IMG/VR virus record: IMGVR_UViG_3300037851_000691
Coordinates: 1-33,342 of that record
Length of the DNA stretch: 33,342 nt
Reading direction: 5' to 3' (one strand)
Source of the DNA: a virus
Taxonomy: Duplodnaviria; Caudoviricetes
The position numbers and the translations under genes are program-made. Positions 1,928 to 30,129 of this stretch are shown piece after piece (position 1 is the stretch's first letter; each line of letters opens with the position of its first letter). The notes beneath the pieces were generated by a model that did no database searches, was not told where the DNA came from, and was given only the letters and a program-made list of their open reading frames with translations.

Positions 1928-1972
1928 CGGTGATCGGGTGCTAACTTGTTGTTAGGTGAGCATGGGGCATGC

Positions 1973-2365: not shown

Positions 2366-2814
2366 TTCCAAAATCCTTTCAGGTGTGAGAGAAGGCTCGT
2401 CTTGGGGCGGGGGCTCCACCAGCGGACGGGATCGGGTCCGACGAGCTCGGAAGCGACGGCTGGGGCGGCGGTGGAGGCGGGCGGCTTGTGCTTGCAGGTC
2501 ACTTCATGCCAGGATCCTTTCTCGGGTGGGCGGCGCATGGCCAGGCGGCGCCGCGCGGTGGCTTCGTTCTTCTCGCTGAACCAGCGCTCGACGTGCCAGC
2601 CGGCCCGGGCGGCGACGTACTGCGCCCAGTCGGCCTGGGCGTCACGGATGCGGATCGTGGCGCGCCAGAAGAGGGGGTGGTTGTCCTCTTTGTACACGTC
2701 CACGGAGACGCTCGAGCCGGGGAAGCGGTCGGTGGAGATCTGTTTGCGCACGCCGGTGGCGATCGCCTGACGGGAGGGCGCACATAGCGGGATGGCGACG
2801 GTGAAGGTTTTCAT
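2362..2814 (-). CDS. Hypothetical protein
   Basis: Coupled to neighbours by 4-nt overlaps at both ends. Confidence 0.7.
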   Translation of the reverse strand: MKTFTVAIPLCAPSRQAIATGVRKQISTDRFPGSSVSVDVYKEDNHPLFWRATIRIRDAQADWAQYVAARAGWHVERWFSEKNEATARRRLAMRRPPEKGSWHEVTCKHKPPASTAAPAVASELVGPDPVRWWSPRPKTSLLSHLKGFWK

Positions 2815-4388
2815 GCTGCGCTCCGTGATTTATAGCGGGGGTCGAGACCTCGGCGGCGGAGGGCCTCATTGATGCACTCGGCGGCGACGTAGTAGGCGCG
2901 ACCGCCGTCGTAGCCGAAGGTGTGGCGCTGGGCGGCCGAGAGGTTGCGGTCGGCGGCTAACCAGTTGTTATAGACCGTGGAGGCGAGCCACGGCGGCCAG
3001 TTGTCGGTGTCGGGTACGGGTATCGGTTTTCCGGTTCTGGCGGCCTCGTAGAGGGGGTCGGGGGCCGGGACGGGGGCCGGAATCGGTTCCAGAACCGCCT
3101 CCTGAACCGTTGAGGGCTGATCAGCAGAACCGAGGCCATCGGCTTCGGCATCGGCCGGGAGGGCCAGGCGGGGGCGGTAGATGGTCGAGTGGCGCAGGCT
3201 CTTGAGCTGGTTGGTGAGGGGAAACTGCACCCAGCCGTTGACCTGCGGGCAGTAGGCGCGCCCGATGGGCAGGTCGAGCAGCTGGTCGGTGACTTCCCGG
3301 CCGTAGACGGCGAAGCGGGCGGCCGTGGCGGTGTCCATGCGCATCATGAAGACGTGCGAGGCGTTGCGCATGAAGGCAGGGTCGAGGACGTCGGCGCGGG
3401 CGGTCTGGGTGCCGACGATGAACATAAAGCCGGCGTTGCGGCCCATGTTGACGAGGGCGCGCAGGCGCTTGCCGAACTCGCGGGCCAGGCGGGCGTCCGT
3501 GATGCTCAGATCGTCGGCGGCGGCCTCGGCCTCATCGACGACGACGACGACGTTGGGCGGGGCGTCGGGCCAGCGGTGATAGTCGGAGATTTTGAGCTCC
3601 TTCATCAGCTGGTCGCGGCGGTCCATCTCGGCGCGCAGGGCGACGACGGCGTCGAAGATCTCGCGGGGCTCGGAGATGACTTCGATGTCGGGCCAGTTGG
3701 AGGCGAAGCGGGAGAGGAAGATGTACTCGGCGCCGGGCAGGTTGCGCCGATAAGCCTCGATTATGTAGCGTAGCGTGTTGGTCTTGCCGCTGCCCTTCTT
3801 GCCGACGATCAGGGTGTCGGGGTTGTTCTGCGGATCGGGCTTGACGATGGCGCCGGGGTCGTAGTCCTGCGGGATGACCTCCGGCTCGGGGAGGAGCGCC
3901 TCGTCGTCGCGCGGGTTCATCAGGGCGCGGGCGACGCCGGCGGTGACGCGGCCGCGAGCGCCGAAGACGGCGTAGGCGACCTGGGCGTTGTGCTGGTTGG
4001 GCGCGGGCAGGAAGTAGGGCTCCGGGAGGGGCCGACCGGCGAGGGCGGCGGCCAGGTAGTCGGGCCAGCCCGGGCGGACGAGCAGGGAGGGCATCATGCC
4101 GCCTTGCAGCGGGTAGACGCGATCCACGCGGCGCAGGATGGCGCCGGCGACGGCGAGGGCGCCGATGGCGACGGCGACGCCGGTGCTGCTGACGGCGACG
4201 ACGCCGGCGCTGATGGCGGCCTGCTTGAGGACGAGCAGGTAGGGCTGGATGGCGGCGGACTGGGCCTGGTTGGCGGCCAGCGTCCAGGCGCGCATGGCCT
4301 GGACGGAGGGGTCGAGCTCGTAGACCAGGCGAGAGGCGCCGAGCAGGGCCAGGCCCACGGCGGCGACGGCGACGATGAACTCCTTCAT
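2811..4388 (-). CDS. Membrane-anchored FtsK/SpoIIIE/HerA-like P-loop ATPase
   Basis: Two N-terminal hydrophobic segments, Walker A GKKGSGKT, AEMDRR, Walker B VVVVDE, and GRNAG..IVGTQ motif typical of the FtsK/HerA superfamily. Confidence 0.85.
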   Translation of the reverse strand: MKEFIVAVAAVGLALLGASRLVYELDPSVQAMRAWTLAANQAQSAAIQPYLLVLKQAAISAGVVAVSSTGVAVAIGALAVAGAILRRVDRVYPLQGGMMPSLLVRPGWPDYLAAALAGRPLPEPYFLPAPNQHNAQVAYAVFGARGRVTAGVARALMNPRDDEALLPEPEVIPQDYDPGAIVKPDPQNNPDTLIVGKKGSGKTNTLRYIIEAYRRNLPGAEYIFLSRFASNWPDIEVISEPREIFDAVVALRAEMDRRDQLMKELKISDYHRWPDAPPNVVVVVDEAEAAADDLSITDARLAREFGKRLRALVNMGRNAGFMFIVGTQTARADVLDPAFMRNASHVFMMRMDTATAARFAVYGREVTDQLLDLPIGRAYCPQVNGWVQFPLTNQLKSLRHSTIYRPRLALPADAEADGLGSADQPSTVQEAVLEPIPAPVPAPDPLYEAARTGKPIPVPDTDNWPPWLASTVYNNWLAADRNLSAAQRHTFGYDGGRAYYVAAECINEALRRRGLDPRYKSRSAA

Positions 4389-5484: not shown

Positions 5485-5495
5485 GGCGTCGGCTC

Positions 5496-5762
5496 CTAAG
5501 ATGTTGTTAGGTGCGCTGCCGGTGTAGCGGCTGCGGTTGGGCCTGTAACGGGGGTTACAAGGCAACCCTGGTGGAGAGCGAGGAGCGCCATGAACAGGCC
5601 GTTGAGCAGGGCGATGGCCAGGCCGCCACCGATCAGGTAGACGACGAAGACGCCGAAGCCGGGGATGTAGCCGAGCCGGAGCGCGCTGTGCAGGGCCAGG
5701 GCGCCGATGGCGATCTGGGCGGCGAAGGCCAGGCCGCAGATGCGGTAGAGGGTCGGGCTCAT
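5496..5762 (-). CDS. Small membrane protein (two hydrophobic segments)
   Basis: Two long hydrophobic stretches; 4-nt overlap with the upstream gene. Confidence 0.65.
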   Translation of the reverse strand: MSPTLYRICGLAFAAQIAIGALALHSALRLGYIPGFGVFVVYLIGGGLAIALLNGLFMALLALHQGCLVTPVTGPTAAATPAAHLTTS

Positions 5763-7808: not shown

Positions 7809-7841
7809 GTTCGTCCGCTAATAACGTATTAGCGGACGAAC
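7809..7841. repeat. Perfect 15-bp inverted repeat containing a CTAA-N7-TTAG site
   Basis: GTTCGTCCGCTAATA-acg-TATTAGCGGACGAAC, intergenic. Confidence 0.9.
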
Positions 7842-8614: not shown

Positions 8615-9895
8615 TCAGTCGTTGGTGTCGTCGTAGAGGGAGGATTGCAGGCCGGGGAGCTGAGCGGCGGCTTTGGCCCACTCGGTGTTCTTCTGGCCGG
8701 CCATGACGTGGTCGTAGCGGGTGGTGATGGCCAGGCTGCTGTGATGGAGCAGCTTGGAGCAGAAGCGCACGTCGGCGCCGCCGTTGGTGTAGAGCATGTA
8801 GGCGGAGTGGCGCAACGTGTGGACGTGGATCGGGTCGGCATCGAGGCCGGCGCGCCGGGCGTAGAACTTGAGCAGGCGGCCGACCTCGTGGCCGGAGATG
8901 GGCCCGGCGGAGGGCTGGGGGGCGTTGACTCCGAGGCGGGCGAGCCGGCGACGGCGCTCTTCGGGGGAGCTGGTGGCGGTGAAGATGTAGTCGCCGGGTT
9001 GGATGGTGGCCAGGCGGCCGGAAAGCTTGAGGAAGTCTTTCACGGCCCGCCAGGCGGGGGCGGGGAGCTCGTCCCAGCCTTCCTTGCCCTTGTTGCGCCA
9101 GTGATAGTAGACGGCGCCGTTCTGCTGGCGGAGGTCCTGCCAGCGCCAGACGCGAATCTCGCTGTTGCGGGCGCCAGTGAGGATGTAGCAGGTGAAGAGG
9201 GCCAGGTCACGGAGGCCGCGGGCGTTGCGCCGGGGAGACGAGGCGGCGTAGCTCTTGATGGCGCCGATGAGGGCGTCGAGCTGGTCGGCGTCGAGCCAGG
9301 TGGCGCTGGCGAACGCGTCGGAGCGGGGGCGGGGGATGCCGCGCGCTCGGGCGGGGTTGATGTCCTCGAAGAGCGGGATCTCGCGTCCGTCGAGGAGGGG
9401 GACGGGGTACTCGCCGGCGTAGGAGTAGAAGGAGCTGATGGCGGCGAGGTACTGGGCGATGGTGCCCTCGGAGAGGCCGAGCTGGTCGGCGGTGCGGCGG
9501 CCGTTGCGCTCGAGGCCGCGGGCGACGTGGCCGGCGATGGGGCGGGCGCGCAGATCGGCGAGCCAGGCGCGCACGTCGCCGGGGACGATGCGCCAGGGGG
9601 CCTTGTCCTGGGTGAAGAGGCGGAAGTCGAGCCAGGCGGCCTGATAGGCGCGGATGGTGGCGAGGGGCCGGGGCTCGCCGGTGCGGGGGGAGCGGGCGAG
9701 CCAGTCGTCGTAAGCGGCGGCCCAGAGGGCGGGCTTGTCCGCGTCGGGGATGGCGGGCGGCGGGGGCGCGACGAGGGCTTCACGCAGGGCGGCGATGAAG
9801 TCGCCGGGGGTGGGCCGGGCGTGGAGGGTGACTTCATCCGGTTCGATGACTTCGATGGTCCGGCCGGTGAATGGGACCAGGGCGGCTTCTGACAT
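8615..9895 (-). CDS. Tyrosine recombinase (XerC/D-like) in the early operon
   Basis: Catalytic set appears intact: TGARNSE (R), KGK (K), HTLRH, LHHSS, TTRY (Y); N-terminal SAM-like core-binding region. Confidence 0.92.
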   Translation of the reverse strand: MSEAALVPFTGRTIEVIEPDEVTLHARPTPGDFIAALREALVAPPPPAIPDADKPALWAAAYDDWLARSPRTGEPRPLATIRAYQAAWLDFRLFTQDKAPWRIVPGDVRAWLADLRARPIAGHVARGLERNGRRTADQLGLSEGTIAQYLAAISSFYSYAGEYPVPLLDGREIPLFEDINPARARGIPRPRSDAFASATWLDADQLDALIGAIKSYAASSPRRNARGLRDLALFTCYILTGARNSEIRVWRWQDLRQQNGAVYYHWRNKGKEGWDELPAPAWRAVKDFLKLSGRLATIQPGDYIFTATSSPEERRRRLARLGVNAPQPSAGPISGHEVGRLLKFYARRAGLDADPIHVHTLRHSAYMLYTNGGADVRFCSKLLHHSSLAITTRYDHVMAGQKNTEWAKAAAQLPGLQSSLYDDTND

Positions 9896-9912
9896 GCGCG
9901 GGCCTTCTTTCG

Positions 9913-10248
9913 CTAAGAATGGGTTAGCGGCGCTGGGGTGAGTTCCTGCCAGCCGTACTGATAGCCGATGAGCCGGAAGGAGCGGTTGGTCTTCTCGGAG
10001 ATGCGGCGGATGTTGATGGGCAGCATCTCGGCGCCGGGCGGGACGGCGAAGGCCTCGGCGATGGCGGCGACGGTGTCAGGCGAGGGCGGGTCGCCCTCCC
10101 GGCCGATGGTGAGGCGGTGGGCGTCGCCGGTGCGGGCGAGGGTGATGTGGATGCCGTAGAAGAGGCGCTCGGCGCGGGCGGTGGGGCCATGGCCGGCGAT
10201 CTCGTGGCGCATCTGCTCGGCGAGTTGGTGGAGTCTGGGCTTGGTCAT
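9913..10248 (-). CDS. Hypothetical protein (MTKPRLHQL...)
   Basis: GGAG RBS before ATG 10248; the longer ORF call runs through a tandem repeat and is less likely. Confidence 0.65.
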   Translation of the reverse strand: MTKPRLHQLAEQMRHEIAGHGPTARAERLFYGIHITLARTGDAHRLTIGREGDPPSPDTVAAIAEAFAVPPGAEMLPINIRRISEKTNRSFRLIGYQYGWQELTPAPLTHS

Positions 10249-11070: not shown

Positions 11071-11112
11071 TCTAAGACCCATAAAAAACGTCAGTAACAA
11101 ACCGTTACTATG

Positions 11113-11141
11113 CTTATACCAGATTGTTAGCGACTTGTCAA
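11113..11141 (-). promoter_or_regulatory. Leftward (lytic/early) sigma70-type promoter
   Basis: On the minus strand: TTGACA - 17 bp - TATAAG with TG extension. Confidence 0.75.
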
Positions 11142-11171: not shown

Positions 11172-11180
11172 TGCTATATT
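11172..11180 (+). promoter_or_regulatory. Possible extended -10 promoter for the repressor
   Basis: TGCTATATT about 20 bp upstream of the repressor start; no clear -35. Confidence 0.4.
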
Positions 11181-11201
11181 GGCAGGGATGAGGTTACAGA
11201 T

Positions 11202-11537: not shown

Positions 11538-11572
11538 TGAGCATCCGGGCAGTGGAGCGGATGATGAATGCG

Positions 11573-11710: not shown

Positions 11711-11726
11711 AGCTGGCTCCGATATC

Positions 11727-11771
11727 TAGAACGACTGTTCTAAGTATAGGGCATGATGGAGGAGAACGCAA
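11727..11771 (-). promoter_or_regulatory. LexA-repressed promoter
   Basis: Minus strand TTGCGT (11766-11771) - 17 bp - TATACT (11743-11748), immediately followed by the palindrome TAGAAC-N4-GTTCTA (11727-11742). Confidence 0.75.
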
Positions 11772-11772
11772 G

Positions 11773-12168
11773 ATGGGAAAGTTTTCGGTTTTGCTGATTG
11801 TGATGCTGGTGTTGGCTGGGTGCGGTCAGGTAGGAGATACGTCGAGCGGGCGCGGGTCAGGTCGGCATGTGGCCGGGGTGGGCGAAGCCTGGCCGGTGCG
11901 GGTGGATGACCTGAAGATGCAGGATGTGTCGGGTCTCGCGTACAAAGTGTCGGCGAGCGCGACGAACACGACGGCGGGGCGGATCTGCTGGGTGCGTCTG
12001 ACGTTCGAGTTCCTGGACGCCGGCGGCGCGGTGCAGGGGAATTGCGACGAATACGTGGTGACGGATGAGTGCATGGCAGCGGGCCAGCGGCTGACGGTGA
12101 ATCGGCAATGTGATCGGCCGGAGGGGGCGACGCAGGTGCGGGTGGGCCAGGTGCACTGGCAAGATTGA
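11773..12168 (+). CDS. Lipoprotein with FxLYD-like beta domain
   Basis: MGKFSVLLIVMLVLAGC lipobox; GGAGG RBS; V..SATN....V..TFEFLDAGGAVQG pattern. Confidence 0.75.
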   Translation: MGKFSVLLIVMLVLAGCGQVGDTSSGRGSGRHVAGVGEAWPVRVDDLKMQDVSGLAYKVSASATNTTAGRICWVRLTFEFLDAGGAVQGNCDEYVVTDECMAAGQRLTVNRQCDRPEGATQVRVGQVHWQD

Positions 12169-12300
12169 TGCGGCGCTAATACGGTCTTATGTGACTGAAT
12201 GAATGGCCGTGCCGTCCGCGGGGATGGGGTAGACCTGGGGCAGCACGGATGGGTGTGGATTGCCGGCCGTGCGGACGGGGGTCGGGGGATCTCGGCTCCT

Positions 12301-12345
12301 GGTTCGGGTCCGTGAGGCCGGAGGTTCAAATCCTCTCTCCCCGAC
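12301..12345 (+). other. attP: attP core: 3' half of tRNA-Pro(CGG)
   Basis: Anticodon loop TTCGGGT, T-arm GGAGG-TTCAAAT-CCTCT and acceptor strand CTCCCCG-A-C. No D arm upstream. Lies about 185 bp before the integrase. Confidence 0.85.
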
Positions 12346-12356
12346 TTGGTATTACG

Positions 12357-12399
12357 GCAGGCAGCACGGTTGGCCGGACAGGGCAGCCGTGCTGCCTGC
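12357..12399. repeat. 13-bp inverted repeat just downstream of the tRNA fragment
   Basis: GCAGGCAGCACGG ... CCGTGCTGCCTGC. Confidence 0.75.
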
Positions 12400-12530
12400 G
12401 GTGATGCCGCCTCGGAGCTCCTCGTCTACCTCAGTCCGCACGGCCAGAGAAAAAAAGCCCACGTCCAACTCTTAGCGGCGCTATGCCGTGTATTAGGGGA
12501 CGACTATCGGGGCTACCGGAGGCTGCACGG

Positions 12531-13484
12531 ATGAAGGGCGTCTCTCTCTGTCTGTCACAGGTGATCGAGGGCTATCTGCTGGAGGCGCACGCCCGCCGGC
12601 TGAGCCCGGGGACGATCTCGGACTACTCCAACGCGTTCCGCAAGCTACAACGCTACCTCGCTGACGATCCTCCATTCGCGGCGATCGGGATCGAGCAGGT
12701 GCGCGGGTTCCTGGCGGATCTGGCGCAGATGACGGAGCCGAAGCCGCTGAGCAAGAAGGCGCTGCTGAACATCCACACGGGGCTGAGTGCGTTGTGGACG
12801 TGGGCGGTGCGGGAGGGGATCGTCGAGCGTCACCTGTTGCGCGATGTGCCGCGGCCGCGGGCGGAGACGCGGGCGGTAGAGCCGTTCAGCCAGGAGGATG
12901 TCAAGGCGCTGCTGGCAGTGTGCGAGCGCAGCGCGGCATATCGGCGGCCGGGGAAGGTGCTTTGCGACAACGAGCGGCCGACGGGGGTCCGGGATCGGGC
13001 GATGATCCTGCTGTTGCTGGACACGGGGATCCGGGCCAGCGAACTGTGCGGCCTTCAGCTGCGTCAGGTGGATTTAAAGAACCGGCATATCGTGGTGATG
13101 GGCAAGGGGAGCAAGGAGCGGCAATTGCCGATCTCGGCGCAAACTTCCAAAGCGCTGTGGAAGTATCTGGTCTCGGAGCGGAAGGATGCGCGGCTGAACG
13201 AGGAAGTGTTCGAGGGGCACTACGGGGGGCCGTTGACGCGCGATGCGCTGCTGAAGGTGCTGCGCCGGCTGGGCGAGCGAGCGGGGGTGGAGGGCTGCCA
13301 TCCGCATCGGTTCCGGCACACCTTTGCCATCCAGTACCTGCGCAATGGCGGGAACACGCTGGCGTTGCAGGCGAGCCTGGGGCATACGACGCTGGAGATG
13401 GTGCGGGTGTACGCGCAGATCGCCCAGGCGGATCTGGATAACGGGCATCTGGTGGCCAGCCCGGTGGCGAACTGGCGGCTATGA
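12531..13484 (+). CDS. int: Phage integrase (tyrosine recombinase)
   Basis: TGIRASE, KGSKER, HRFRH, LGH, VRVY motifs; GGAGG RBS; adjacent to attP. Confidence 0.92.
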   Translation: MKGVSLCLSQVIEGYLLEAHARRLSPGTISDYSNAFRKLQRYLADDPPFAAIGIEQVRGFLADLAQMTEPKPLSKKALLNIHTGLSALWTWAVREGIVERHLLRDVPRPRAETRAVEPFSQEDVKALLAVCERSAAYRRPGKVLCDNERPTGVRDRAMILLLLDTGIRASELCGLQLRQVDLKNRHIVVMGKGSKERQLPISAQTSKALWKYLVSERKDARLNEEVFEGHYGGPLTRDALLKVLRRLGERAGVEGCHPHRFRHTFAIQYLRNGGNTLALQASLGHTTLEMVRVYAQIAQADLDNGHLVASPVANWRL

Positions 13485-13494
13485 CTACTACATC

Positions 13495-13522
13495 TTGTGT
13501 TCTAGATCAGATGTGCTACTAT
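13495..13522 (+). promoter_or_regulatory. Candidate promoter for the rightward/late leader gene (leaderless)
   Basis: TTGTGT - 16 bp - TACTAT with TG extension, 7 bp before ATG 13530; no RBS. Confidence 0.45.
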
Positions 13523-13529
13523 ATGCGGT

Positions 13530-13727
13530 ATGGAACAGCTTGCATTCTTGACGACATCGCAAATTCATGAGCTGGACCGGATGTGTAAACAGGTAGCCGA
13601 GGGGCCGGGCTGGGGCCGGGTTTCGGTGGTGATCGAGAACGGACGCCCGCGCTGGGTGGAGACGGCCGTCACGCGGGCGATCGGGACGGAGGAGCGGGGC
13701 AGACCACCGCCGGGGAGTCCACGGTGA
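13530..13727 (+). CDS. Small DUF2292/YezD-like protein
   Basis: GWGRVSVVIENGRPRWVE resembles the G(F/Y)G.V.I.I..G motif of this family, recognised by eye. Confidence 0.55.
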   Translation: MEQLAFLTTSQIHELDRMCKQVAEGPGWGRVSVVIENGRPRWVETAVTRAIGTEERGRPPPGSPR

Positions 13728-13762
13728 GAGCCGCGCCCGCCAGAGGTGATACGCAATCCCGG

Positions 13763-13800
13763 GGCCGGAGATCAGAGCGATCTCCGGCCTTTCTTTTTCT
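13763..13800 (+). terminator. Strong intrinsic terminator ahead of the morphogenesis operon
   Basis: GGCCGGAGATC-agagc-GATCTCCGGCC followed by TTTCTTTTTCT. Confidence 0.85.
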
Positions 13801-13807
13801 CACGCCG

Positions 13808-14068
13808 ATGCCAGCGACAACACACGACGAGCCCGGGGTCATCTTTCCACTGACGCCAACCGAGCGGGTGGCGGTGGTGATGCTGGCGCTCGTGCGGGGC
13901 CAGCGTTTGACGTCGAGCGATGTGGCGCGCATGACGGGCCTGACGACCGGCGCGGCGCTGCGGCTGTTGCAGAACATCTCGCGGGTGGCGCCGGTGTATG
14001 ACGATGAGGGCGAGTGGCAGCTGCTCCAGGCGGCAGACTGCGTGGGGCGCGTCGGGTGGGGCGTATGA
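13808..14068 (+). CDS. Small winged-HTH protein
   Basis: LTSSDVARMTGLTTGAALRLLQNI HTH pattern. Confidence 0.6.
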   Translation: MPATTHDEPGVIFPLTPTERVAVVMLALVRGQRLTSSDVARMTGLTTGAALRLLQNISRVAPVYDDEGEWQLLQAADCVGRVGWGV

Positions 14069-14113
14069 TGGGAGGGACGATCGTGGATTGTTCTTCGCAT
14101 AATCATCGCTTAG

Positions 14114-14725
14114 GTGCGCTGGCCGGGGGGCCCGGAATTGGAATCGCGCGATTTTGACGGTTTTACGGCAGAGGCGGGGGAGCCGGCGGGGGAGCCGGCG
14201 GGACGCGAGAAGGTGGACGGCTGGCTGCTTGGGGTTGAGAAGCCGCCGGCCTGGCTGGAGCTGTGGCGCGATTTGTGCGACGAGCGGGCGCCGGTGATCG
14301 GGGCGGATGGCGAGCTGGCGCTGAATGCGCGCGGGGAGGCCCGGGTCCGCAAACGCTGGAACTGGCGCCAGGCGTTGTATATCGCCTGGATGGCGACGCC
14401 GAAGCACAAGCGGGAACCGAAGACGCAAGACGAGCTCGCCGATCTGCTGGGGCTGGCCTCGACGGGTACGTTTCGCAACTGGCGCCGGGCGCATCCTGAG
14501 ATGGTGGAGCGGATTCAGCAGGTGCCGCGGGATCTCCTGGTGACGCACCTGGCGGATGTCTACGATGCGCTGGTGTATGTGGCGCGGAGCTACGACCCAC
14601 GGGCGCACCCTGATCGCAAGCTGTTCCTTGAGCTGGTGGGCGAGTACACACCGAAGGCGGAGCTGAAGAGCGATGTGACGGTCAATGCGCCGGTGGCATT
14701 GTTGCCGGAAGCGGACGATGACTGA
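14114..14725 (+). CDS. terS: Terminase small subunit (HTH type); start uncertain
   Basis: TQDELADLLGLASTGTFRNWRR HTH; directly upstream of and overlapping terL. Confidence 0.7.
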   Translation: MRWPGGPELESRDFDGFTAEAGEPAGEPAGREKVDGWLLGVEKPPAWLELWRDLCDERAPVIGADGELALNARGEARVRKRWNWRQALYIAWMATPKHKREPKTQDELADLLGLASTGTFRNWRRAHPEMVERIQQVPRDLLVTHLADVYDALVYVARSYDPRAHPDRKLFLELVGEYTPKAELKSDVTVNAPVALLPEADDD

Positions 14726-16049
14726 CAGCGGCGCGCCGTGGTCGCCGCATGCGGGGCCGCAGATGGCGTTTCACCGCTCGAAGGCGTTCGAGGTGTTGTA
14801 CGGCGGGGCGGCCGGCGGCGGGAAGAGCGACAGTTTGCTGATGGAGGCGCTGCGCTATGCCCACGTGACGGGGTACACGGCGATCATCCTGCGGCGGACG
14901 TATGCGCAGCTGAGCCAGGCGAACGCGCTGATCCCGCGCAGCCGGGAGTTGTTGACGGATCGGGCGCGCTGGAACGAGGAGCGCAAGACGTGGACCTTTC
15001 CGAGCGGGGCGACGGTGCAATTCGGCCACATGCAGCACGAGGGCGACAAATACAACTACCAGGGGGCGGCGTTTGCGTTCGTGGGCTTCGATGAGCTGAC
15101 CCAGTTCGAGGAGGAGCAGTACATGTACCTCTTCAGCCGGGCCCGAACGACGGCGAAGCTGCCGGATGGGCGGGCGATCCCGGTGCGCGTGCGGGCGACG
15201 ACGAACCCGGGCGGCGATGGGCACGAGTGGGTGAAGCGGCGCTGGGGGGTGTGGCTGGGGGATCAGCCGACGGCGCAGAGCGGGGAGGTCCGCTGGTATC
15301 GCAACGTGGGAGGCACGGACGAGGAGACGACTGCCGGCGATCCGCAAGGGTTGAGCCGGCAGTTTATTGCGGCGAGCCTGCGCGACAACCCGACGCTGCT
15401 GGCGAATGACCCGGTGTACGTGCAGCGGCTCGAGGCGTTGCCGCTGATCGAGCGGGAGCGGCTGCTGAACGGCAACTGGCAGATCGGGCCGCAGGGGAAC
15501 GTGTTCCGGCGGGAGTGGTTCCGGGTGACGCCGGCGGCGCCGGCCGGGCTGAAGTGGGCGCGCTACTGGGACCTGGCGGCGAGCGTCAAGGACACGGCGG
15601 ATTACACGGCTTCGGTGGCGGCGGCGCTGGCCGACGATGGAACGCTGTATCTGCGGGACATGATCCGAGGCCGGTGGGAATGGCCGGACCAGGAGACGAT
15701 CATCGTGCAGACGATGCTGGCGGATCCGAAGTGCGTCCACGGCGTGGAGAAGGCGCTGCACGGGATTGCGGCGGTGCAGACGTTGCTGCGCCGGCGGGAG
15801 CTGGGCAGGATCGTCGTCAAGGGCGTGGATGTGGACCGGGACAAGCTCACGCGGGCGTTGCCGCTCTCGGCCCGGGCGGAGCAGGGCAAGGTGGCCCTCG
15901 TCGAGGGGGCCTGGATCGGGGCGTTTCTCGACGAGCTGACGGCCTTCTCCGGGGACGGGAAGACGCATGACGACCAGGTGGATGCGGCGAGCGGCGGGCT
16001 GGCGCTCTTGACGGGCGATCCGCGGACGCGCAAGGGCTACGCTTGGTAA
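14718..16049 (+). CDS. terL: Terminase large subunit
   Basis: YGGAAGGGKS Walker A, FDE Walker B, TTNPGG, WDLA and HDDQVDA nuclease motifs. Confidence 0.95.
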   Translation: MTDSGAPWSPHAGPQMAFHRSKAFEVLYGGAAGGGKSDSLLMEALRYAHVTGYTAIILRRTYAQLSQANALIPRSRELLTDRARWNEERKTWTFPSGATVQFGHMQHEGDKYNYQGAAFAFVGFDELTQFEEEQYMYLFSRARTTAKLPDGRAIPVRVRATTNPGGDGHEWVKRRWGVWLGDQPTAQSGEVRWYRNVGGTDEETTAGDPQGLSRQFIAASLRDNPTLLANDPVYVQRLEALPLIERERLLNGNWQIGPQGNVFRREWFRVTPAAPAGLKWARYWDLAASVKDTADYTASVAAALADDGTLYLRDMIRGRWEWPDQETIIVQTMLADPKCVHGVEKALHGIAAVQTLLRRRELGRIVVKGVDVDRDKLTRALPLSARAEQGKVALVEGAWIGAFLDELTAFSGDGKTHDDQVDAASGGLALLTGDPRTRKGYAW

Positions 16050-16076
16050 TCGCTTATTAGCGGAGCAGGAGGGGAG

Positions 16077-17438
16077 ATGGCGACTGATGATGTGACCTGG
16101 GCGCTGGAGACGCTGGGCGGGCGGCTGACGGCGTATCAACTGGCAGACGACTACTATGACGGGCGGCATCGGCTGGCCTTTGCGACGGATAAGTTCCGCA
16201 GCGCCTTCGGGTCGCTGATCTCGGCGTTCGCCGAGAACCTGTGCTCGTCGGTGGTGGACACGGTGGCCGACCGGCTTCAGGTGAGCGGGTTCGCGGCCGA
16301 TGATGAGGCCGCCATGGCGCTGACGGATGCGCTGTGGCAGGCCAACCGGATGGATCGGCGGGCGGGCGAGGTGCACGCGGAGGCGCTGAAGAGCGGCGAT
16401 GCGTACCTGATCGTCTGGCCGGGCGCCGACGGGACGGCGCGGTTCTATCCGCAGCAGGCCGAACAGGTGTGCGTGTACTACGACCCGGAGGACCCGGGGC
16501 GGATCACGAAGGGGGCGAAGGTGTTCTGGCAGGAGGACCTGCTCGCCTGGCGGGTGAACCTGTACTGCGCCGACCGGATCGAGAAGTACGTAGGGAAGCC
16601 GCAGGGCAAGATGGGCGGTTCGACGTTCCCGACGAACGGCGGGAGCTTCGAGGTCTACCGGCCGGCCGGCGAGAGCTGGCCGCTGCTCAACCCGTGGGGC
16701 GTCGTGCCGGTGTTTCACTTCGGCAACAATGCGGCCACGGGCGCGGTGGGGGTCAGCGAGCTGGCGAACGTCGTGCCGTTGCAGGATGCCCTCAACAAGT
16801 CGCTCACGGACATGCTGGTGGCGATGGAGTTCGTGGCGCTGCCGCAACGCTGGATAACGGGGCTGGAGATCGACATCGACGAGACGACCGGCAAGCCGCT
16901 GATGCCGTTCCAGCCGGGGGCGGATCGGGTGTGGGCGGTGGGCGCGCCGGACGCGCGTTTCGGCCAGTTCGAGGGGGCCGACCTGACGGGGTTCCTGGGG
17001 GCGCAGGACGGTTTTCGGGTGGCGATCGCCCGGGTGAGCCGGACGCCGCTGCACCTGCTGATCACGAATCAGATGGGGGAATATCCGAGCGGCGAGGCGC
17101 TGAAGACGGCGGAGGAGCCGCTGAATGCGAAGGTGCGGGATCGGCAGATCGCCTTCGGCAACGTCTGGGAGGACGCGGTGAGCTTTGCGCTGCGCATGAG
17201 CGGGGTGGAGGTGGAGGGGTTGGCGTGTCAGTGGCAGGACTTCACGGCGCGCAACAGCCAGAGCTACATCGAGGGGTTGCTGCTGAAGAAGCAGCTCGGG
17301 GCCAGCGAAGAGCAGCTGTTGCTGGAGGCGGGCTACAGCGCCGAGGATGTGGCGCGGATGAAGCAGGAACGGGAGGCGGAGACGGCGGACGTCAGTGAAC
17401 AGATCATGGCGGCGTTCGACCGAGGGACAAACGCATAG
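16077..17438 (+). CDS. Portal protein (SPP1 gp6-like)
   Basis: YYDGRH, N...VVD...RL, VVPVFHF, SGEAL motifs; follows terL. Confidence 0.9.
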   Translation: MATDDVTWALETLGGRLTAYQLADDYYDGRHRLAFATDKFRSAFGSLISAFAENLCSSVVDTVADRLQVSGFAADDEAAMALTDALWQANRMDRRAGEVHAEALKSGDAYLIVWPGADGTARFYPQQAEQVCVYYDPEDPGRITKGAKVFWQEDLLAWRVNLYCADRIEKYVGKPQGKMGGSTFPTNGGSFEVYRPAGESWPLLNPWGVVPVFHFGNNAATGAVGVSELANVVPLQDALNKSLTDMLVAMEFVALPQRWITGLEIDIDETTGKPLMPFQPGADRVWAVGAPDARFGQFEGADLTGFLGAQDGFRVAIARVSRTPLHLLITNQMGEYPSGEALKTAEEPLNAKVRDRQIAFGNVWEDAVSFALRMSGVEVEGLACQWQDFTARNSQSYIEGLLLKKQLGASEEQLLLEAGYSAEDVARMKQEREAETADVSEQIMAAFDRGTNA

Positions 17439-17447
17439 GAGGCAGCC

Positions 17448-18284
17448 GTGGGGCAACGGGCCGTCATTGCAGTCATCAACGACACCCACACCGGCTCGGC
17501 GCTGGCGCCATTTCCGGGGGACGCGTGGGAACTGGCGGATGGAAATTGTCTCATGCCGAACGCATGGCAGCAGACGCTGGGGGCGCACTGGGAGGAGTGC
17601 TGGCGGCTGGTTGGGGCGGCGCGCCGGCGCTCTCGGCTGATCATCTGGCACGTGGGGGATGCGACGGAGGGCGTCCACCACGACATGATGCAGATCCACA
17701 GCAATCTGGCCGAAGAGCAAGAGCGGATGCACCTGGCGCTGATGCGGCAGGCGCTGGCGCTGGCGCATTTCAACCCACGGACGGACTCGCTCACCTATTT
17801 CTGCGGGACGCCGGCGCATGGCGATGTGGAGCGGATCGCCCGGGAGCTGCTCGACGCGGACAAGGAGGACGGCCGGCTGGCGACGCCGTACCTGCTGGCC
17901 AGCGTCAACGGCTGCCTGTTCGACGTGGCGCACGAGGGGTTCAGCGAGGGCACGCGCGAGTGGACGCGCGACAACACGATGCGTGCCTACCTAACAAGCC
18001 GTTATCTGTCGAGCCTGAAGCACGGCCGGCCGATGCCGCGCTACGTGCTGCGGGCGCACCGGCATCGTTGGCGGGTGGCGGATGTGCGCGACGACGACGG
18101 GCGGATCATCAGCGAGGGGATGCTGCTGCCGGCGTGGAAGCTGCGCGATGCGTACATCTACCGCAAGTATCCGGAGGGCATCAGCCAGGTGGGAATGGTG
18201 GTGTTCGAGGTGGAGGCGGACGGGGCGAGCCGTTGGCGGGGGCTGACGATGCGGGTCGAGCAAGACGAGGTGATGGAGCTGTGA
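17448..18284 (+). CDS. Calcineurin-like metallophosphoesterase-fold protein
   Basis: DTH, GDATEG, GTPAH, VAH and AHRH motifs in metallophosphoesterase order. Confidence 0.65.
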   Translation: MGQRAVIAVINDTHTGSALAPFPGDAWELADGNCLMPNAWQQTLGAHWEECWRLVGAARRRSRLIIWHVGDATEGVHHDMMQIHSNLAEEQERMHLALMRQALALAHFNPRTDSLTYFCGTPAHGDVERIARELLDADKEDGRLATPYLLASVNGCLFDVAHEGFSEGTREWTRDNTMRAYLTSRYLSSLKHGRPMPRYVLRAHRHRWRVADVRDDDGRIISEGMLLPAWKLRDAYIYRKYPEGISQVGMVVFEVEADGASRWRGLTMRVEQDEVMEL

Positions 18285-18535
18285 CCACGATCTCTCACGA
18301 CGAAGCATACACGGCGTTGCAAGAACTGGTGGAGCTGCTGCGGCCGCATGTCCTGCCCGAGAAGGGGCCGGACGAGTTCACGGTGGCGGAGCTGGCCGAG
18401 GCGATCGGCGTCGAGGTGAACCACATGAAGCTCGTGTTGGATCGCCAGGTGCGCGAGGGGATATTGACCTGCCGGGAAGTGCGGACGCAGGCGCGCCGGA
18501 AGGCGACGGCGTACCGGAGAGCGCGGGATGCCTGA
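18281..18535 (+). CDS. Small winged-HTH protein
   Basis: GTG start overlapping the upstream stop; FTVAELAEAIGVEVNHMKLVLDRQVREG. Confidence 0.65.
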   Translation: MTTISHDEAYTALQELVELLRPHVLPEKGPDEFTVAELAEAIGVEVNHMKLVLDRQVREGILTCREVRTQARRKATAYRRARDA

Positions 18536-19595
18536 ACCAACGCCGACGATCGGGGGCCCGACGATCGGGCGCATTTACCGGACGGCGCTGAAGCAGCGGG
18601 CGGCGTTGTTGCGCGGCGAGCGCCAGGCGGCGGGCGAGCTGGTGCGCGCGTACGGCGGGGTGTGGGAGCGCATCCGGGGCCGGATCGAGGCGCTGCTGGC
18701 GGAGCGGGAGGCGGCGCTGGCGCGCGGGGAGCGGGTAACGGCGGCGTGGCTGTGGCAGTACGAACGGATGACGACGTTGGAGCGCCAGGTCGAGCAGGAG
18801 ATGTGGGGTTTCGCCCGGACGGCGGGCGTGACGATCGCCGAGCAGCAGCGGGCGGCGGTGGCGCTGGCCGAAGAACACGTGTTCGAGCAGGTGGCGGGCG
18901 GACTGGTGCAGCTCAACCGGCTGCCGACGGAGGCCGTGGTGGACCTGGTCGGGTTCACCGGCGACGGCAGCCCGTTGCGCGAGCTGCTCGACGCCCTGGG
19001 ACCGCAGGCGTCGGCGCACGTGCGCGATGCGCTGATCCAGGGGGTGGCGCTGGGGAAGAACCCGCGGGCGATCGCCCGGGAGACGCGGTCGGCGTTCGGA
19101 AGGACGCTGAGCCGGGCGCTGACGGTGTCACGGACGGAGACGCTCCGGGCGTATCGCGAGGCGACGCGGCGCAACTACCAGGAGAACTCCGACGTGGTGC
19201 GGGGCTGGATCTGGGTGTGCGCCTGCACGCCGCGCAGCTGCGCGGCGTGCTTTGCGATGCACGGGACGGTGCACGGGGCGAACGAGCGGCTGGACGGCCA
19301 CCCGAATTGCCGCTGCGTGATGGCGCCCTACACCTACGCGGTGGCGGGGATGGCGGAGCAGGAGCTGCCGGACGCCGGGCCGGAGGTGTTCGCCAAGTTG
19401 AGCGAGGAGGACCAGGTGCGGGTGCTGGGGCCGGCGGCGGCGGCGGCGTATCGGGCGGGTGCGGTGCGGCTGGAGGACTTCGTCGGGCGGCGCCGCAGTC
19501 GGGATTGGGGCTCGACGCGGTACGCCAAATCGCTGGGGGCGGTGGTGGGGCCGGAGCAGGCGCGGGAATGGACGGCGAAGGCGCTGGGACGCTAA
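18528..19595 (+). CDS. Minor head protein (SPP1 gp7 / Mu gpF family)
   Basis: SRTET, CAAC..MHG and HPNCRC motifs. Confidence 0.88.
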   Translation: MPEPTPTIGGPTIGRIYRTALKQRAALLRGERQAAGELVRAYGGVWERIRGRIEALLAEREAALARGERVTAAWLWQYERMTTLERQVEQEMWGFARTAGVTIAEQQRAAVALAEEHVFEQVAGGLVQLNRLPTEAVVDLVGFTGDGSPLRELLDALGPQASAHVRDALIQGVALGKNPRAIARETRSAFGRTLSRALTVSRTETLRAYREATRRNYQENSDVVRGWIWVCACTPRSCAACFAMHGTVHGANERLDGHPNCRCVMAPYTYAVAGMAEQELPDAGPEVFAKLSEEDQVRVLGPAAAAAYRAGAVRLEDFVGRRRSRDWGSTRYAKSLGAVVGPEQAREWTAKALGR

Positions 19596-19697
19596 GGCGT
19601 TGTTAGGTGGGCAGCAGGTACAACGCGTGGGGCGCACGGGGTGCGTGATATGGTGGGGATGACACGGCGGAGAGATTCCGCCAACAAGGAGGGCGTG

Positions 19698-20219
19698 ATG
19701 CCTGACGGTTCTGAACAGGGGGGCCTGGGAGCAGGGGAGCAGGCGGGAGCCGAGACCACGAGCTTCGAGAGCTTCTACGGTGGATTGGATGAGACGGCCA
19801 AGGGGCTGATTGACGGGCACATCACCGGGCTGCGGTCGGCGCTGGACAGCGAGAGGCAGCAGCGCAACGGCCTGGCGAAGCAGATCAAGGAGCTGGCCGC
19901 CAAGGCGGAGAAGGGGTCGGAGCTGGAGAAGCAGCTGACCGATGCGTCCGCTAAGCTCGAATTAGCGGAGCGCCGTGCTACGTTCTACGAGGACGCGGCG
20001 CAGCCTCAAATCGGTTGCACGAACGCCAAGCTGGCGTTCATCCTGGCGCAGACGGAGAACCTGTTCGATCGCCAGGGCCGGCCGGACTGGGCAGCGATCA
20101 AGAGCACGGCGCCGGAGTTGTTTCGCTCGAGCGTCGGCTCGGCGGATGGGGGCGCCGGCGGGCAGAAGCGCACGGCGCTGGACATGAATGCGGCGATCCG
20201 CCGGGCGGCGGGACGCTGA
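19698..20219 (+). CDS. Capsid scaffolding protein
   Basis: Coiled-coil, C-terminal DMNAAIRRAAGR, directly upstream of the capsid gene; AAGGAGG RBS. Confidence 0.75.
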   Translation: MPDGSEQGGLGAGEQAGAETTSFESFYGGLDETAKGLIDGHITGLRSALDSERQQRNGLAKQIKELAAKAEKGSELEKQLTDASAKLELAERRATFYEDAAQPQIGCTNAKLAFILAQTENLFDRQGRPDWAAIKSTAPELFRSSVGSADGGAGGQKRTALDMNAAIRRAAGR

Positions 20220-22478: not shown

Positions 22479-22515
22479 TCGCCGCCTAATGTGTTGTTAG
22501 CTGACGGAGGCGCAG

Positions 22516-24717: not shown

Positions 24718-25575
24718 ATGAGTCACGAGATCAGCTGGCGACACACCGACACGGGTGTGACCCTGTACGTCACGATCCGCAGCACAGCGCGCACGTACTG
24801 GAACGGGGCGGATTTGGAAGCGCTGACGGTCGCCAATTGGGGCGACTACGACGTAGCGCTGAGCGAGACGCCGGCCTCCTCTTATTTCTATGTCGGCACA
24901 TTTCCAGCGGGGGCTGCAGTTGGTTTCTACTGGCTGGACGTGTTTGTGCAAGCCGGGGCCAGTCCGGCGATCAGCGACACGTTGACAGGGACGATGGCTG
25001 GGTACTGGGACGGCGCGACATTTCGACCGTACGCGCCGAATGCGGTGGAAGTGTCCGATGCGGTGTGGGACGAGGATCTGACGGGGCATACGACGTCCGA
25101 TTCGGCGGGCGAGGCGCTCGGCGAGGTGACGGTGGATCCGACAGTGGCGATCTCGGCGACGCAGGCGGCAGCGGTGGCCAGCGGGATGCTGGCGATCACG
25201 GTGTACGCGACCTGGACGCAGGCGATCACCAGCACGATGGCGCAGGACCTGGGCGGGGCGACGAAGCTGTGGCTGGCGGTGAAGGCTTCCTCACTGGACG
25301 ACGACGACGAATCGGTGTTCTTCATCGAGGAGACGGCCGGGCTGACGGTGCTCAACGGGGCGGAGTACACGACGACAACGGACGGCGCGCTGGCTGTGAC
25401 CGGCTCGGCGGGCGACTGGACGGTGACGGCGACGCTGGCGGTGGACGCGACGGCGGCGCTGGAGACAACGGGGCTGCTGCTGTACGAGCTGAAGGCGCTG
25501 ATCGGCGGGACTGTCTACATCGTCTCGACCGGGCAGGCGCGGGTGCTGATCGGGCTGATCAAGGCCATAGAATAG
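24718..25575 (+). CDS. Hypothetical virion protein
   Basis: Typical codon usage; DAVWDE..GH...SAG motif; within the structural operon. Confidence 0.65.
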   Translation: MSHEISWRHTDTGVTLYVTIRSTARTYWNGADLEALTVANWGDYDVALSETPASSYFYVGTFPAGAAVGFYWLDVFVQAGASPAISDTLTGTMAGYWDGATFRPYAPNAVEVSDAVWDEDLTGHTTSDSAGEALGEVTVDPTVAISATQAAAVASGMLAITVYATWTQAITSTMAQDLGGATKLWLAVKASSLDDDDESVFFIEETAGLTVLNGAEYTTTTDGALAVTGSAGDWTVTATLAVDATAALETTGLLLYELKALIGGTVYIVSTGQARVLIGLIKAIE

Positions 25576-25605
25576 CGCCGCTAAGGGAAGGTTAGGAGAC
25601 AGGAA

Positions 25606-26188: not shown

Positions 26189-26598
26189 TGCCGGTCGAGT
26201 TCAATCATTTCCCGCTGATCGCCGACCGGCTCGAGAGCGGGGCGCGCCCGGTGGTGCAGACGACGATCAAGCGCATCGAGGCGTCCGCTAAGAAGTCGTT
26301 AGGGGGGCCACGGACGGGCATCGTCTACCGGGTCGGCGGGACGAAGGATCGGCCGATCTTGCACCAGGCGAGCGCGCCGGGCGAACCGCCGGCGACGGAG
26401 ACGGGGAACCTGGCGAATTCGATCACGTCGCAGATGCTGGACAGCCGCACGGGGATGGTGAGCGTGGGGGCGGAGTACGCCGCGCCGTTGGAGTTCGGCA
26501 GCGCGCGGGGGCTAGCGCCACGGCCGTTCCTGACGCCGGCGGTCGAGCGCAACTGGCCGGACTTCCTGGCGGCCATGGAAAGGCTATTGACGCCGTGA
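26188..26598 (+). CDS. HK97 gp10-family tail-component protein
   Basis: SAPGEPPATETGNL, YAAPLEFG and PRPFLTPA motifs. Confidence 0.85.
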   Translation: MPVEFNHFPLIADRLESGARPVVQTTIKRIEASAKKSLGGPRTGIVYRVGGTKDRPILHQASAPGEPPATETGNLANSITSQMLDSRTGMVSVGAEYAAPLEFGSARGLAPRPFLTPAVERNWPDFLAAMERLLTP

Positions 26599-28306: not shown

Positions 28307-28524
28307 GGGTCCGGGAGCTGCGCCGCTGGCTGCTGACCGAGGGCGAGCTGGGCCAGTGCCCGGACTACTACCCGGTGATCAGGGCGGCGCGTTACCTCGG
28401 GGTGGCGCCGTGGGAGCTGAATGCGCAGCCGCTCGCTTGGCAGGAATGGGCGCTGGTGTGCGAGGCGGCGGAGATCGGGGCGCAGAACGAGGCGGCGCAG
28501 GAAGCGGTGAGGAAGCGGCGCTAA
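28297..28524 (+). CDS. -1 frameshift extension of the chaperone (gpGT-like)
   Basis: Slippery G GGA AAA at 28297-28303; the -1 frame reads GKIGVRELRRWLL...AARYLGVAPWEL...RKRR* to TAA 28522-28524. Confidence 0.8.
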   Translation, partial: GKIGVRELRRWLLTEGELGQCPDYYPVIRAARYLGVAPWELNAQPLAWQEWALVCEAAEIGAQNEAAQEAVRKRR

Positions 28525-28569
28525 GTCCTCATTAGGCCCGCTGACGGGAGCCCGCTTGAAGGGGGACAT

Positions 28570-30090
28570 GTGGTTGTAGCAGCGAGACTCAGTGCAATTG
28601 TACACGCCGACACCGGGAAGGCGACCAGCGACATTCGGGCATTTGGCGCTGAGGTGATGACCACCGGAAAGACGGTGGATACGCAGACGCGCAACATGGA
28701 CATGGCGTTCTCCGGGGTGATGCGCGGCATCGGGACAATCGCCGGGGTCGGGTCGCTGAGCGCGCTGGCATTGGGCGCCGGGCGCGCCGTGATCGAGCTG
28801 GGGAATCTCGGCCAGGAGCTCAACAAGCAGCGGGCGTATTTTGACGTGTGGTCCGGCGGAGCAGCGAACGCGGCTGCCAACATGGAGGCCATGCGCGCGG
28901 CAGTCGGCAACAGCATGACCGAGATGGAGATGATGACGGCTGCCAATCAGCTCTTGAGCATGGGGCTGGCGAAGACGCCGGAGGAGCTGCGCAAGCTGTC
29001 GGAGATGGCGGTGATGCTGGGCGGTTCGACCCGGTCGGCAGGGGAGGCGATCAACGAATTCTCTCTGTTGCTGGCGAATCAGAGCATCTTGCGGCTGGAT
29101 ACGTTCGGGATCTCCGGGGCGCGGGTGCGCGAGCGCATTGAGGAGCTGCAAGCGGCCGAGGAGGGGTTGAGCCGGGAGCAGGCGTTCATGAACGCCGTGA
29201 TGGAGATCGGCACGCAGAAGGTATCCGCGCTGGCGGCGGCGGGAGTGGACGCAACCACGGCGACGCAGGATCTGACGACGGCCTGGGGCCAGGCGCGGGA
29301 GGAGATCGCGGCCGGCTTGGATACGGCCGGGGTGACTGCGGAGCTGGCGCGCATTGTGAGCGGGGTCGGTACGGCGATCGGGGCCAGCCTCGGCGGCGAG
29401 TCCTCCGTGCTGAAGGTGCTGCAACAGGACCTGGCCTATCTGCAACAGCAACGAGATGCGATCGAGGCGGGCGGCGGGCTGTTCAAGGGCGCGCGTCTCA
29501 ACGAGCTCGACCAGCAGATCGCCGCGGTGACGGCGCGGATCCAGGAATATACCACGGTGACCGCCGGCATGGCGACGGGGACGCAGCAGGTGGCTGACGG
29601 GCTGCGCGAGGTGGGCGCAGCGGCGGCCGAGATAGACACCACCGCCATCACAGAGGCCAGTACGGCGATCGAGGATCTGACGGCGAAGGTAGACAAGCGC
29701 ATCGAAGTGGCGCTGACCGGCGATCTCTCCGGCACTGAGTTGGTGCTGGAAGGCGCGCAAGCGGCCGGATTCGCCGAGCAATTCAAGAACGACATTTTGA
29801 AGGCGGTCGCGGAGATCGCCGGGAAGGCGCCCACGATCTATGACGAGCTCGTCAACGGCGCAGCGACGGCTATGGCCGCGAAGGACAATACCAGTATTGT
29901 GCCGGCGCTGGCGGAGGCGATCTCTAGGGACCTGAGCACGAGTGCGGCGCTGATCCAGAACCAGGGCGGGCAGGCGTGGGTGCTGCTCGAGGCGGGGATC
30001 CTGGCGAAAGCGTCGGCGAGTGGGGTGTTGCGCGCGGCGATCCAGGCGGCGCTGGATGCGTTGACGGAAGAGTACACCAGCGGGCGCTAA
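28570..30090 (+). CDS. Tape measure protein (short, 506 aa)
   Basis: Ala-rich helical, LDTFGI motif; follows the chaperone pair. Confidence 0.85.
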   Translation: MVVAARLSAIVHADTGKATSDIRAFGAEVMTTGKTVDTQTRNMDMAFSGVMRGIGTIAGVGSLSALALGAGRAVIELGNLGQELNKQRAYFDVWSGGAANAAANMEAMRAAVGNSMTEMEMMTAANQLLSMGLAKTPEELRKLSEMAVMLGGSTRSAGEAINEFSLLLANQSILRLDTFGISGARVRERIEELQAAEEGLSREQAFMNAVMEIGTQKVSALAAAGVDATTATQDLTTAWGQAREEIAAGLDTAGVTAELARIVSGVGTAIGASLGGESSVLKVLQQDLAYLQQQRDAIEAGGGLFKGARLNELDQQIAAVTARIQEYTTVTAGMATGTQQVADGLREVGAAAAEIDTTAITEASTAIEDLTAKVDKRIEVALTGDLSGTELVLEGAQAAGFAEQFKNDILKAVAEIAGKAPTIYDELVNGAATAMAAKDNTSIVPALAEAISRDLSTSAALIQNQGGQAWVLLEAGILAKASASGVLRAAIQAALDALTEEYTSGR

Positions 30091-30129
30091 TTTGCTGTTA
30101 GCGGACGAGGGCCTCTGCGGAGGGGCGGA

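Follow-up and report, generated by a model that had tools for sequence, protein, structure and literature searches.

The window analysed here, the entire 33,342-bp virus record IMGVR_UViG_3300037851_000691, contained 18 sites of 29 bp arranged in an evenly spaced array, and such arrays were a real feature of a whole family of related phages. The explanation that we favour, and hold to be evenly balanced between right and wrong, is that the sites are targets of a phage tyrosine recombinase, recombinase A, which would close a headful-packaged, end-duplicated genome into a circle after injection. The record had a GC content of 66% and an estimated completeness of 82%, and matches to Pfam and PHROGs identified it as a tailed temperate phage.

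The core of the site, TAA-N7-TTA, occurred 19 times in the window against 0.14 expected, and the other gap lengths from 0 to 15 yielded 0–4 copies. It was present at every one of the 17 positions listed in an earlier sequence-only reading; a further site, at 2957, had been overlooked there and split the reported 1809-bp gap into 1016 and 793 bp. Conservation reached 8 bases outside the core, which gave an 11-bp arm, a 7-bp spacer, and an 11-bp arm with the consensus W-S-S-K-C-M-S-C-T-A-A. All 18 spacers differed from one another, and the base adjoining TAA was A in just 11 of 610 arms from the window and its relatives. Two inverted arms of about 11–13 bp around a non-palindromic spacer of 6–8 bp define the core site of a tyrosine recombinase (PMC4111918; statements from the literature here and below refer to the passages of each paper that were available), and this arrangement was found as 11-7-11 in the window and as 11-6/7-11 in relatives. 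The 19th core, at 11094, was set aside because its arms misfit the array (leave-one-out arm score −16), leaving 18 true sites. When the window was rescanned with a matrix allowing 6–8-bp spacers, no 19th member was found, neither elsewhere nor within the 22486–25581 gap, and the best non-member (12482–12511, 8-bp spacer) scored 18.6, under all 18 member scores. This weak site-like palindrome sits between the likely attachment site (attP) and the gene of a second tyrosine recombinase, recombinase B.

The gaps among the 18 sites ranged from 359 to 3095 bp with a mean of 1765 bp and a coefficient of variation (CV) of 0.40. The CV of 0.40–0.42 compared with about 0.95 for random positions (P about 5e-5, uniform placement), and the longest gap was shorter than expected from random placement (P 0.0006–0.0016). 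When 10–17 inner sites were drawn from 38 gene junctions for the 19 cores, P was 1e-4 to 3.5e-4, and for the 18 sites 0 of 5000 such draws were as even. The regularity described in the sequence-only reading was thus upheld against random placement and also against a gene-junction null. Its quasi-periodicity of about 2 kb stood as even spacing, whereas a true period was weak (Rayleigh test, P 0.03 with the 18 sites, 0.10 with all 19 cores). A strict 2-kb periodicity was rejected on this weak Rayleigh test, the lack of a helical phase, and the other spacings in relatives. The run of gaps 1923/1947/1945 had a P of 0.005, calculated post hoc, and a fourth gap of 1960 requires the site at 19592 to be skipped. 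Within the longest gap, 72-bp tandem repeats (24002–24651) were located in a low-GC gene (23390–24712), and two 72-bp repeats (742–885) were also seen inside the Dam-like methylase gene.

The sites had been described as independent of gene boundaries, which did not hold: although about 85% of the window was coding, 12 of the 18 sites lay at junctions, either intergenic or overlapping a gene end, and six lay inside genes. The in-gene sites held four of the six TTA codons in the window, which had 922 leucine codons in total. Homologous stretches of relatives, eight for the scaffold gene carrying the site at 19951 and others for the terminase–portal region, did not carry the sites of the window. 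Therefore, junctions were preferred and genes were entered where needed.

The array was compared across 53 records including the window, gathered with profiles of A, B, and the open reading frame (ORF) 4719–5321 plus a pattern scan. These comprised 24 array records, 11 array-less records bearing A, and 18 array-less records without A. The set was not random because the loci (50 of 85 first listed) were picked partly by motif signal, and genome-completeness figures were rough estimates. Records G004, G008, and G009, with operator-class sites, were not counted as arrays. G046 and G050 were counted but excluded from the 22-record evenness test, as were the partial loci L117, L120, and L130, whose junction-null result was not significant. 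In the 24 array records, the arms were own to each phage and the spacer was 6 or 7 bp; in G005 the core was CAA-N7-TTG. With strict cores, 18 of 25 site sets passed the gene-junction null at P<0.01. A matrix rescan placed degenerate sites with one TAA arm in the large gaps of G003, G021, and G028, and thereafter all 22 records were under-dispersed (CV 0.20–0.51, P<0.01 against uniform placement), with 0–0.3 sites in shuffled-sequence controls. Across these 22 records, 264 of 312 sites were located at gene junctions, by gene calls made in this analysis, and no record contained an identical spacer pair.

Each array had 8–20 sites, and the mean gap differed by phage, from 1.8 to 5.9 kb. Conservation of spacing in relatives was therefore confirmed for its evenness in 22 of 22 records, and the 2-kb value was not kept. 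In the 13 records with a completeness of 77% or more, the longest gap amounted to 7.6–14.7% of the estimated genome length and scaled with it (rho 0.80). The proposal of the sequence-only reading that selection acts on the maximum distance between sites gained support from the in-gene sites with their TTA codons, the siteless scaffold homologues, the under-dispersion in all 22 records, and the degenerate sites that filled the big gaps of three relatives.

The motif occurred in one of 80 capsid-related loci (L020, nine sites in 18 kb). In 260 kb of G001, which represents the presumed host group only, two N6 and one N7 cores were counted against 2.8 expected of each, and a host genome-wide repeat was rejected on this lack of enrichment. 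No hidden degenerate array with shared arms was found in the 14 array-less records listed site by site, and excess cores in G008, G018, G022, G026, and G033 had no common arms. A search with recombinase B alone gave nothing new. A pattern scan for phages like G025 covered 66 loci and found enrichment solely in the G025 and G029 records. Universal spacer addresses were rejected because the apparent sharing between distant phages vanished when the order was permuted.

Recombinase A was the candidate enzyme for the array. The A lineage was present in 20 of the 24 array records and in 11 of the 29 others (P 0.002), and the four array records without A were two fragments with neither recombinase and two contigs ending next to B. 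In seven of the 11 array-less records bearing A (G013, G014, G018, G026, G033, G036, and G047), a near-perfect lone site was located at or shortly beyond the 3′ end of the A gene. In a quick tree, the A proteins of G005 and L133 were sisters, and both records shared the unusual CAA-core arm. Of the 32 A proteins, 31 retained the full catalytic set R-K-H-R-H-Y, as did all 45 B proteins. The structure model of A (pLDDT 81) had additional helices, both ahead of the N-terminal domain and inside it, and array-type A proteins were longer than single-site ones (13 against 11 proteins, P 0.0006). Recombinase B is the likely integrase because a tRNA 3′ half adjoins it; a tRNA T-arm was found within 800 bp of 35 of 48 B ORFs and 5 of 33 A ORFs. 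The phage is thus likely to have a recombinase distinct from its integrase, as in Cre/loxP-type systems. In relatives, halves of different tRNAs occupied the same place upstream of B.

Other binders were also considered. Recombinase B as sole binder was rejected, since none of the 18 records without A had an array, and no third gene family common to all array records was found. The model of the unannotated ORF 4719–5321 (minus strand, ~186 aa), which is shared with L020, combined an XRE-like part at the N-terminus with an RHH-like one at the C-terminus, and the fold search returned weak XRE-type matches only. This HTH+RHH-like protein was rejected as binder because its family occurred in array-less records and tracked a different motif, GTAA-N6-TTAC, which was present in 48 of 58 family loci and 3 of 80 controls, often in-gene and encoding a conserved VTxVT. 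GTAA-N6-TTAC is likely an autoregulatory operator of the family. A 16-bp palindrome, TGTAAC-N4-GTTACA, was present inside (4866–4881) and upstream (5544–5559) of the ORF. Contigs of two public runs, one possibly the source of the window and the other from a near-identical strain, were aligned to window positions 1–17500 and gave no interpretable joint at a site, and a promoter scan of 7700–12600 found none and was uninformative.

In the favoured reading, the genome would be packaged by headful with about 8–12% terminal redundancy, and the duplicated end of any packaged copy would contain one site. Recombinase A would bind the arms, and only two copies of the same site, with identical spacers, would recombine; exchange restricted in this way would therefore give no deletions or inversions from non-allelic sites. 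After injection, A would join the two redundant copies into a circle, which would then be integrated by B or replicated. With permuted ends and a site-specific enzyme, every possible redundancy would need a site, and therefore selection would act on the longest gap, keeping it below the redundancy length and scaling it with genome length. Such a cap would account for both the sites forced into genes and the gaps that scale with genome size. The idea was formed after the spacing and the first RecT/AAA_24 results, and the terminases and large gaps were examined afterwards. A broader proposal, which we put forward tentatively, is that a temperate phage family swapped homologous circularisation for a spacer-addressed, lox-like grid, in which one recombinase would serve 8–20 mutually orthogonal sites spaced just under the redundancy and any circularly permuted genome from a virion could thus close on itself, with allelic module exchange between relatives as a by-product.

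Packaging genes were distributed in line with this reading. A cos-type large terminase (TerL), defined by PF03354 over the cut-off, a family that we take to be cos-type, was absent from all 24 array records but found in 5 of 11 array-less records bearing A and in 1 of 18 records without A. Among typed records, the cos type was found in 0 of 14 array and 5 of 7 array-less records bearing A (P 0.001). Terminase_6N over the cut-off was found in 14 of 24 array records and 2 of 11 array-less records bearing A. The best phage match of the window TerL was psiM2 TerL (41%), annotated as similar to SPP1 TerL. We presume that psiM2 and SPP1 both package by headful, which the available passages of PMC8540584 do not state for psiM2. 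From the Terminase_6N match, the SPP1-like portal, and the psiM2-like TerL, headful packaging is tentatively predicted for the window phage. RecT or AAA_24 matches assigned to annealing recombinases were seen in 6 of 18 records without A (3 of 18 over the cut-off), compared with 0 of the 35 records that had an array or A; this count disregards two AAA_24 matches under the cut-off, in the array records G020 and G038. Erf and Rad52 matches were found in 0 of 53 records, and no RecT/Erf/Rad52/Sak4-type recombinase was found in array phages.

Headful packaging loads 102–110% of a genome, whose matching ends are then recombined into a circle (PMC9006064). In P1, the head has room for about 112% (PMC10999674). 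At 8% redundancy, which corresponds to the longest gap of the window (about 3.1 kb), all headfuls of the window would hold a site, compared with 85% if the sites were placed at random.

Several results weighed against the favoured reading. Terminase_6N was also found in 12 of 18 array-less records without A, and in G036 and G047 it occurred with a single site only. No terminase type could be called in 10 of the 24 array records, and Terminase_6N, which presumably also holds cos and other packagers, is no proof of headful packaging. The redundancy needed matched or exceeded the top of the quoted 2–10% range; at 4%, a site would be present in 79% of window headfuls, compared with 61% at random. 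Distinct spacers were also expected by chance, with 27 near-identical pairs against 38 in shuffles, and Cre tolerates spacer mismatches in vitro (PMC1479339). Arm similarity tracked B over A (Mantel rho 0.43 against 0.31, partial P 0.004 against 0.06, n=17), even though B as sole binder had been rejected. The perfect site next to the A gene differed in its arms from the dispersed sites in G020 and G035, and in G005 (13727–14745) the A frame was split in two despite a strong array; the split may be an assembly error or a recent break. Finally, the Fisher P values overstate the support because the records were hand-picked and related.

The remaining window genes included a MuF-like protein, a capsid gene, neck genes, a divergent pair of HTH genes, and a Dam-like methylase, in addition to the terminase, portal, FtsK-like ATPase, and recombinases listed in Table 1. 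The host of the window phage is presumably a member of the Chloroflexota, judged solely from the relatives of one window gene in metagenome-assembled genomes (MAGs): one in a Chloroflexi MAG and one in a Ca. Caldilinea MAG, with a third match in a Chlorobiaceae MAG.

Table 1. Array sites and associated features of the window
Feature	Position	Strand	Remarks
Array site 1	1934..1962		11-7-11, spacer CTTGTTG; 15 bp after M23 peptidase gene
Array site 2	2950..2978		Inside FtsK-like gene, in-frame TTA codon
FtsK/SpoIIIE-like ATPase	2811..4388	-	
Array site 3	3743..3771		Inside FtsK-like gene
Array site 4	5489..5517		Over stop codon of ORF 5496–5762
Array site 5	7811..7839		Perfect arms, top score; 784 bp beyond recombinase A stop
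Tyrosine recombinase A	8615..9895	-	426 aa; R243 K269 H359 R362 H385 Y394 intact; candidate array enzyme
Array site 6	9906..9934		Directly upstream of recombinase A start
TAA-N7-TTA core	11087..11115		Between two HTH genes; arms misfit array; non-member
Array site 7	12169..12197		Intergenic, upstream of attP and recombinase B
tRNA 3′ half	12301..12345	+	Anticodon loop CGG, presumably Pro; likely attP core of B
Tyrosine recombinase B	12483..13484	+	XerA/XerD-like; likely prophage integrase
Array site 8	14092..14120		Start of ORF preceding TerL (putative small terminase, by position)
Large terminase (Terminase_6N/6C)	14685..16049	+	Predicted headful type
Array site 9	16039..16067		Over TerL stop codon; no site at L059 and L061 equivalents
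SPP1 gp6-like portal	16077..17438	+	
Array site 10	17984..18012		Inside ORF 17448–18284
Array site 11	19585..19613		Over MuF-like gene stop codon
Array site 12	19944..19972		Inside putative scaffold gene (TTA codon)
Array site 13	22479..22507		Intergenic
Array site 14	25574..25602		Intergenic; ends longest gap (3095 bp)
Array site 15	26281..26309		Inside neck/tail-completion gene (TTA codon)
Array site 16	28514..28542		Before putative tape-measure gene
Array site 17	30080..30108		Over putative tape-measure stop codon
Array site 18	31947..31975		Inside beta-propeller gene (TTA codon)

Four other explanations were weighed against circularisation. The sites could be address-tagged crossover points at which segments are swapped between an incoming phage and a prophage, the spacer permitting exchange at the allelic site only; as the main function this is unlikely. 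The 12 flank-matched sites of G025 and G029 shared 86% identity in the spacers, against 78% for the arms and 49% for the 12 bp alongside, and their spacer order was collinear (z 9.5). Several homology blocks started or stopped at sites, the predominance of gene junctions among the 312 sites fits exchange of modules, and identical spacers mark the sites between which pdif modules move (PMC13141974). However, spacers were collinear in only one of 27 pairs and in none between the window and seven other records with 7-bp spacers. Site junctions were synteny breaks in 90 of 110 cases compared with 255 of 371, but the odds ratio was alike against array-less partners (2.0 and 2.1). Module exchange also leaves unexplained the sites in essential genes, the scaling of the longest gap, and the lack of arrays in cos-type phages; such exchange could be a side effect of the proposed circularisation.

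Unlinking of sister genomes, to which we give a somewhat lower probability, would have an Xer-like recombinase (A, B, or host Xer), possibly with the FtsK-like motor, resolve or make multimers and catenanes at the nearest matched pair of sites. The dif-like site shape agreed with this, and XerA and XerD were the closest solved relatives of A in a profile search with eight matches. The lone sites beside A in seven array-less records resembled resolution sites, and an FtsK-like gene was found in 12 of the 24 array records but in 2 of the 29 others. The complete array records G021, G025, and G028, however, had no FtsK-like gene, and the phage-specific arms fit a phage enzyme better than host Xer. 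One site suffices for dimer resolution, as in Xer/dif and Cre/lox, so that unlinking exerts no evident pressure on the longest gap.

The sequence-only reading had favoured a protein that binds the sites without recombination and organises or shields the genome in regular loops, which we consider improbable. Even spacing and sites inside genes were compatible with structural binding, as were the greater length of array-type A and the additional helices in its model. The passive organising or protective role fared poorly because the site anatomy and the co-occurring tyrosine recombinase, catalytically intact in all but one A protein, point to recombination sites. A fixed 2-kb physical loop likewise gave way to mean gaps that were phage-specific (1.8–5.9 kb, no physical constant) and a longest gap that scaled with genome size. 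Moreover, no other gene family was common to all array records, the spacers conserved between G025 and G029 would be needless for binding alone, and structural binding does not predict the terminase pattern. The explanation that fits least, and is very improbable, is that a phage repressor would use the sites as operators or as road-blocks to transcription, in the manner of stoperators: 12 of the 18 sites lay at junctions, several overlapping starts or stops, and two XRE-type HTH genes are present besides that of the HTH+RHH-like protein, but the spacing was evener than the junction-based null, the core between the two HTH genes (the immunity region) was the one non-member, and the HTH+RHH family tracked its own motif and occurred in array-less records. 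The doubt already cast on transcriptional regulation in the sequence-only reading was borne out by these results.

Further features were observed in the related records. In the otherwise collinear arrays of G025 and G029, two adjoining spacers were swapped in order (13679/16810 in G025, 32622/35999 in G029). In G020 (978), G035 (52367), and G019 (22372), a recombinase gene was immediately followed by a lone site whose arms differed from those of the dispersed array, suggesting two TAA-type systems in one phage. Dif-like sites beside a recombinase gene were found in G040 (near 44728–45720) and G045 (20994), both with the spacer TGTATA, which we take to be that of E. coli dif. Among records without A, dispersed palindromes of other kinds were seen in G052 (TCCG-N3-CGGA, 11 copies, CV 0.52) and in G044 and G022 (TTCT-N5-AGAA / TCTG-N3-CAGA). 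G012 had clustered palindromes of the GTTTC-N4-GAAAC type (10–12 copies), and G010 and G011 had the class GTTA-N6-TAAC.

Before it can be replicated or integrated, the genome of a headful phage needs its redundant ends recombined, and the routes known are general recombinases and a single lox-type site. If the favoured reading is correct, a grid of matched spacers with a largest gap that follows the redundancy would solve circularisation in a new way, and the longest gap, readable from sequence, would predict the packaging excess of uncultured phages. It also offers a testable alternative to the module-shuffling view usual for dispersed dif-like sites. For multiplex genome engineering, the set would be attractive as a source of about twenty natural recombinases with different arms and distinct spacer panels. 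The open-access literature, as far as its listings and the beginnings of abstracts tell, gave no account of phage genomes evenly tiled with recombinase sites.

When compared with known systems, the array resembled Cre/loxP of phage P1, which likewise has a phage tyrosine recombinase apart from an integrase and a site with inverted arms and an asymmetric spacer. P1 depends on a single main site close to pac, whereas the arrays tile the genome with 8–20 sites of different spacers, and the window phage carries in addition a likely integrase with its tRNA attP. Linear DNA that arrives in the headful capsid of P1 is closed into a circle by Cre (PMC2841073), a role that the array is proposed to share. 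The loxP site is 13-8-13 (PMC1479339), unlike the shorter sites of the window and its relatives, and Cre was missing among the eight solved-structure matches of the A profile. The task would be the same as that of the Erf-type proteins of P22 and Sf6, which join redundant ends after injection (PMC5630979, PMC9006064). P22 uses general homology and an annealing protein, however, whereas the array records had no Erf, RecT, Rad52, or over-cut-off AAA_24 matches.

The sites also resembled XerC/XerD dif and the pdif sites of Acinetobacter, which are 11-6-11 with TAA..TTA beside the spacer (PMC13141974, Table 1). As in the arrays, many pdif sites occur per replicon, and exchange takes place between identical or nearly identical spacers (PMC13141974). 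Recombinases A and B, however, scored far under the XerC, XerD, and XerA cut-offs. The pdif sites (28 bp, 6-bp spacer) are served by host XerC and XerD, have fixed arms, and bracket accessory modules, whereas the arrays have phage-specific arms, and the window sites have a 7-bp spacer, are also located in structural genes, and are spaced evenly over the whole genome.

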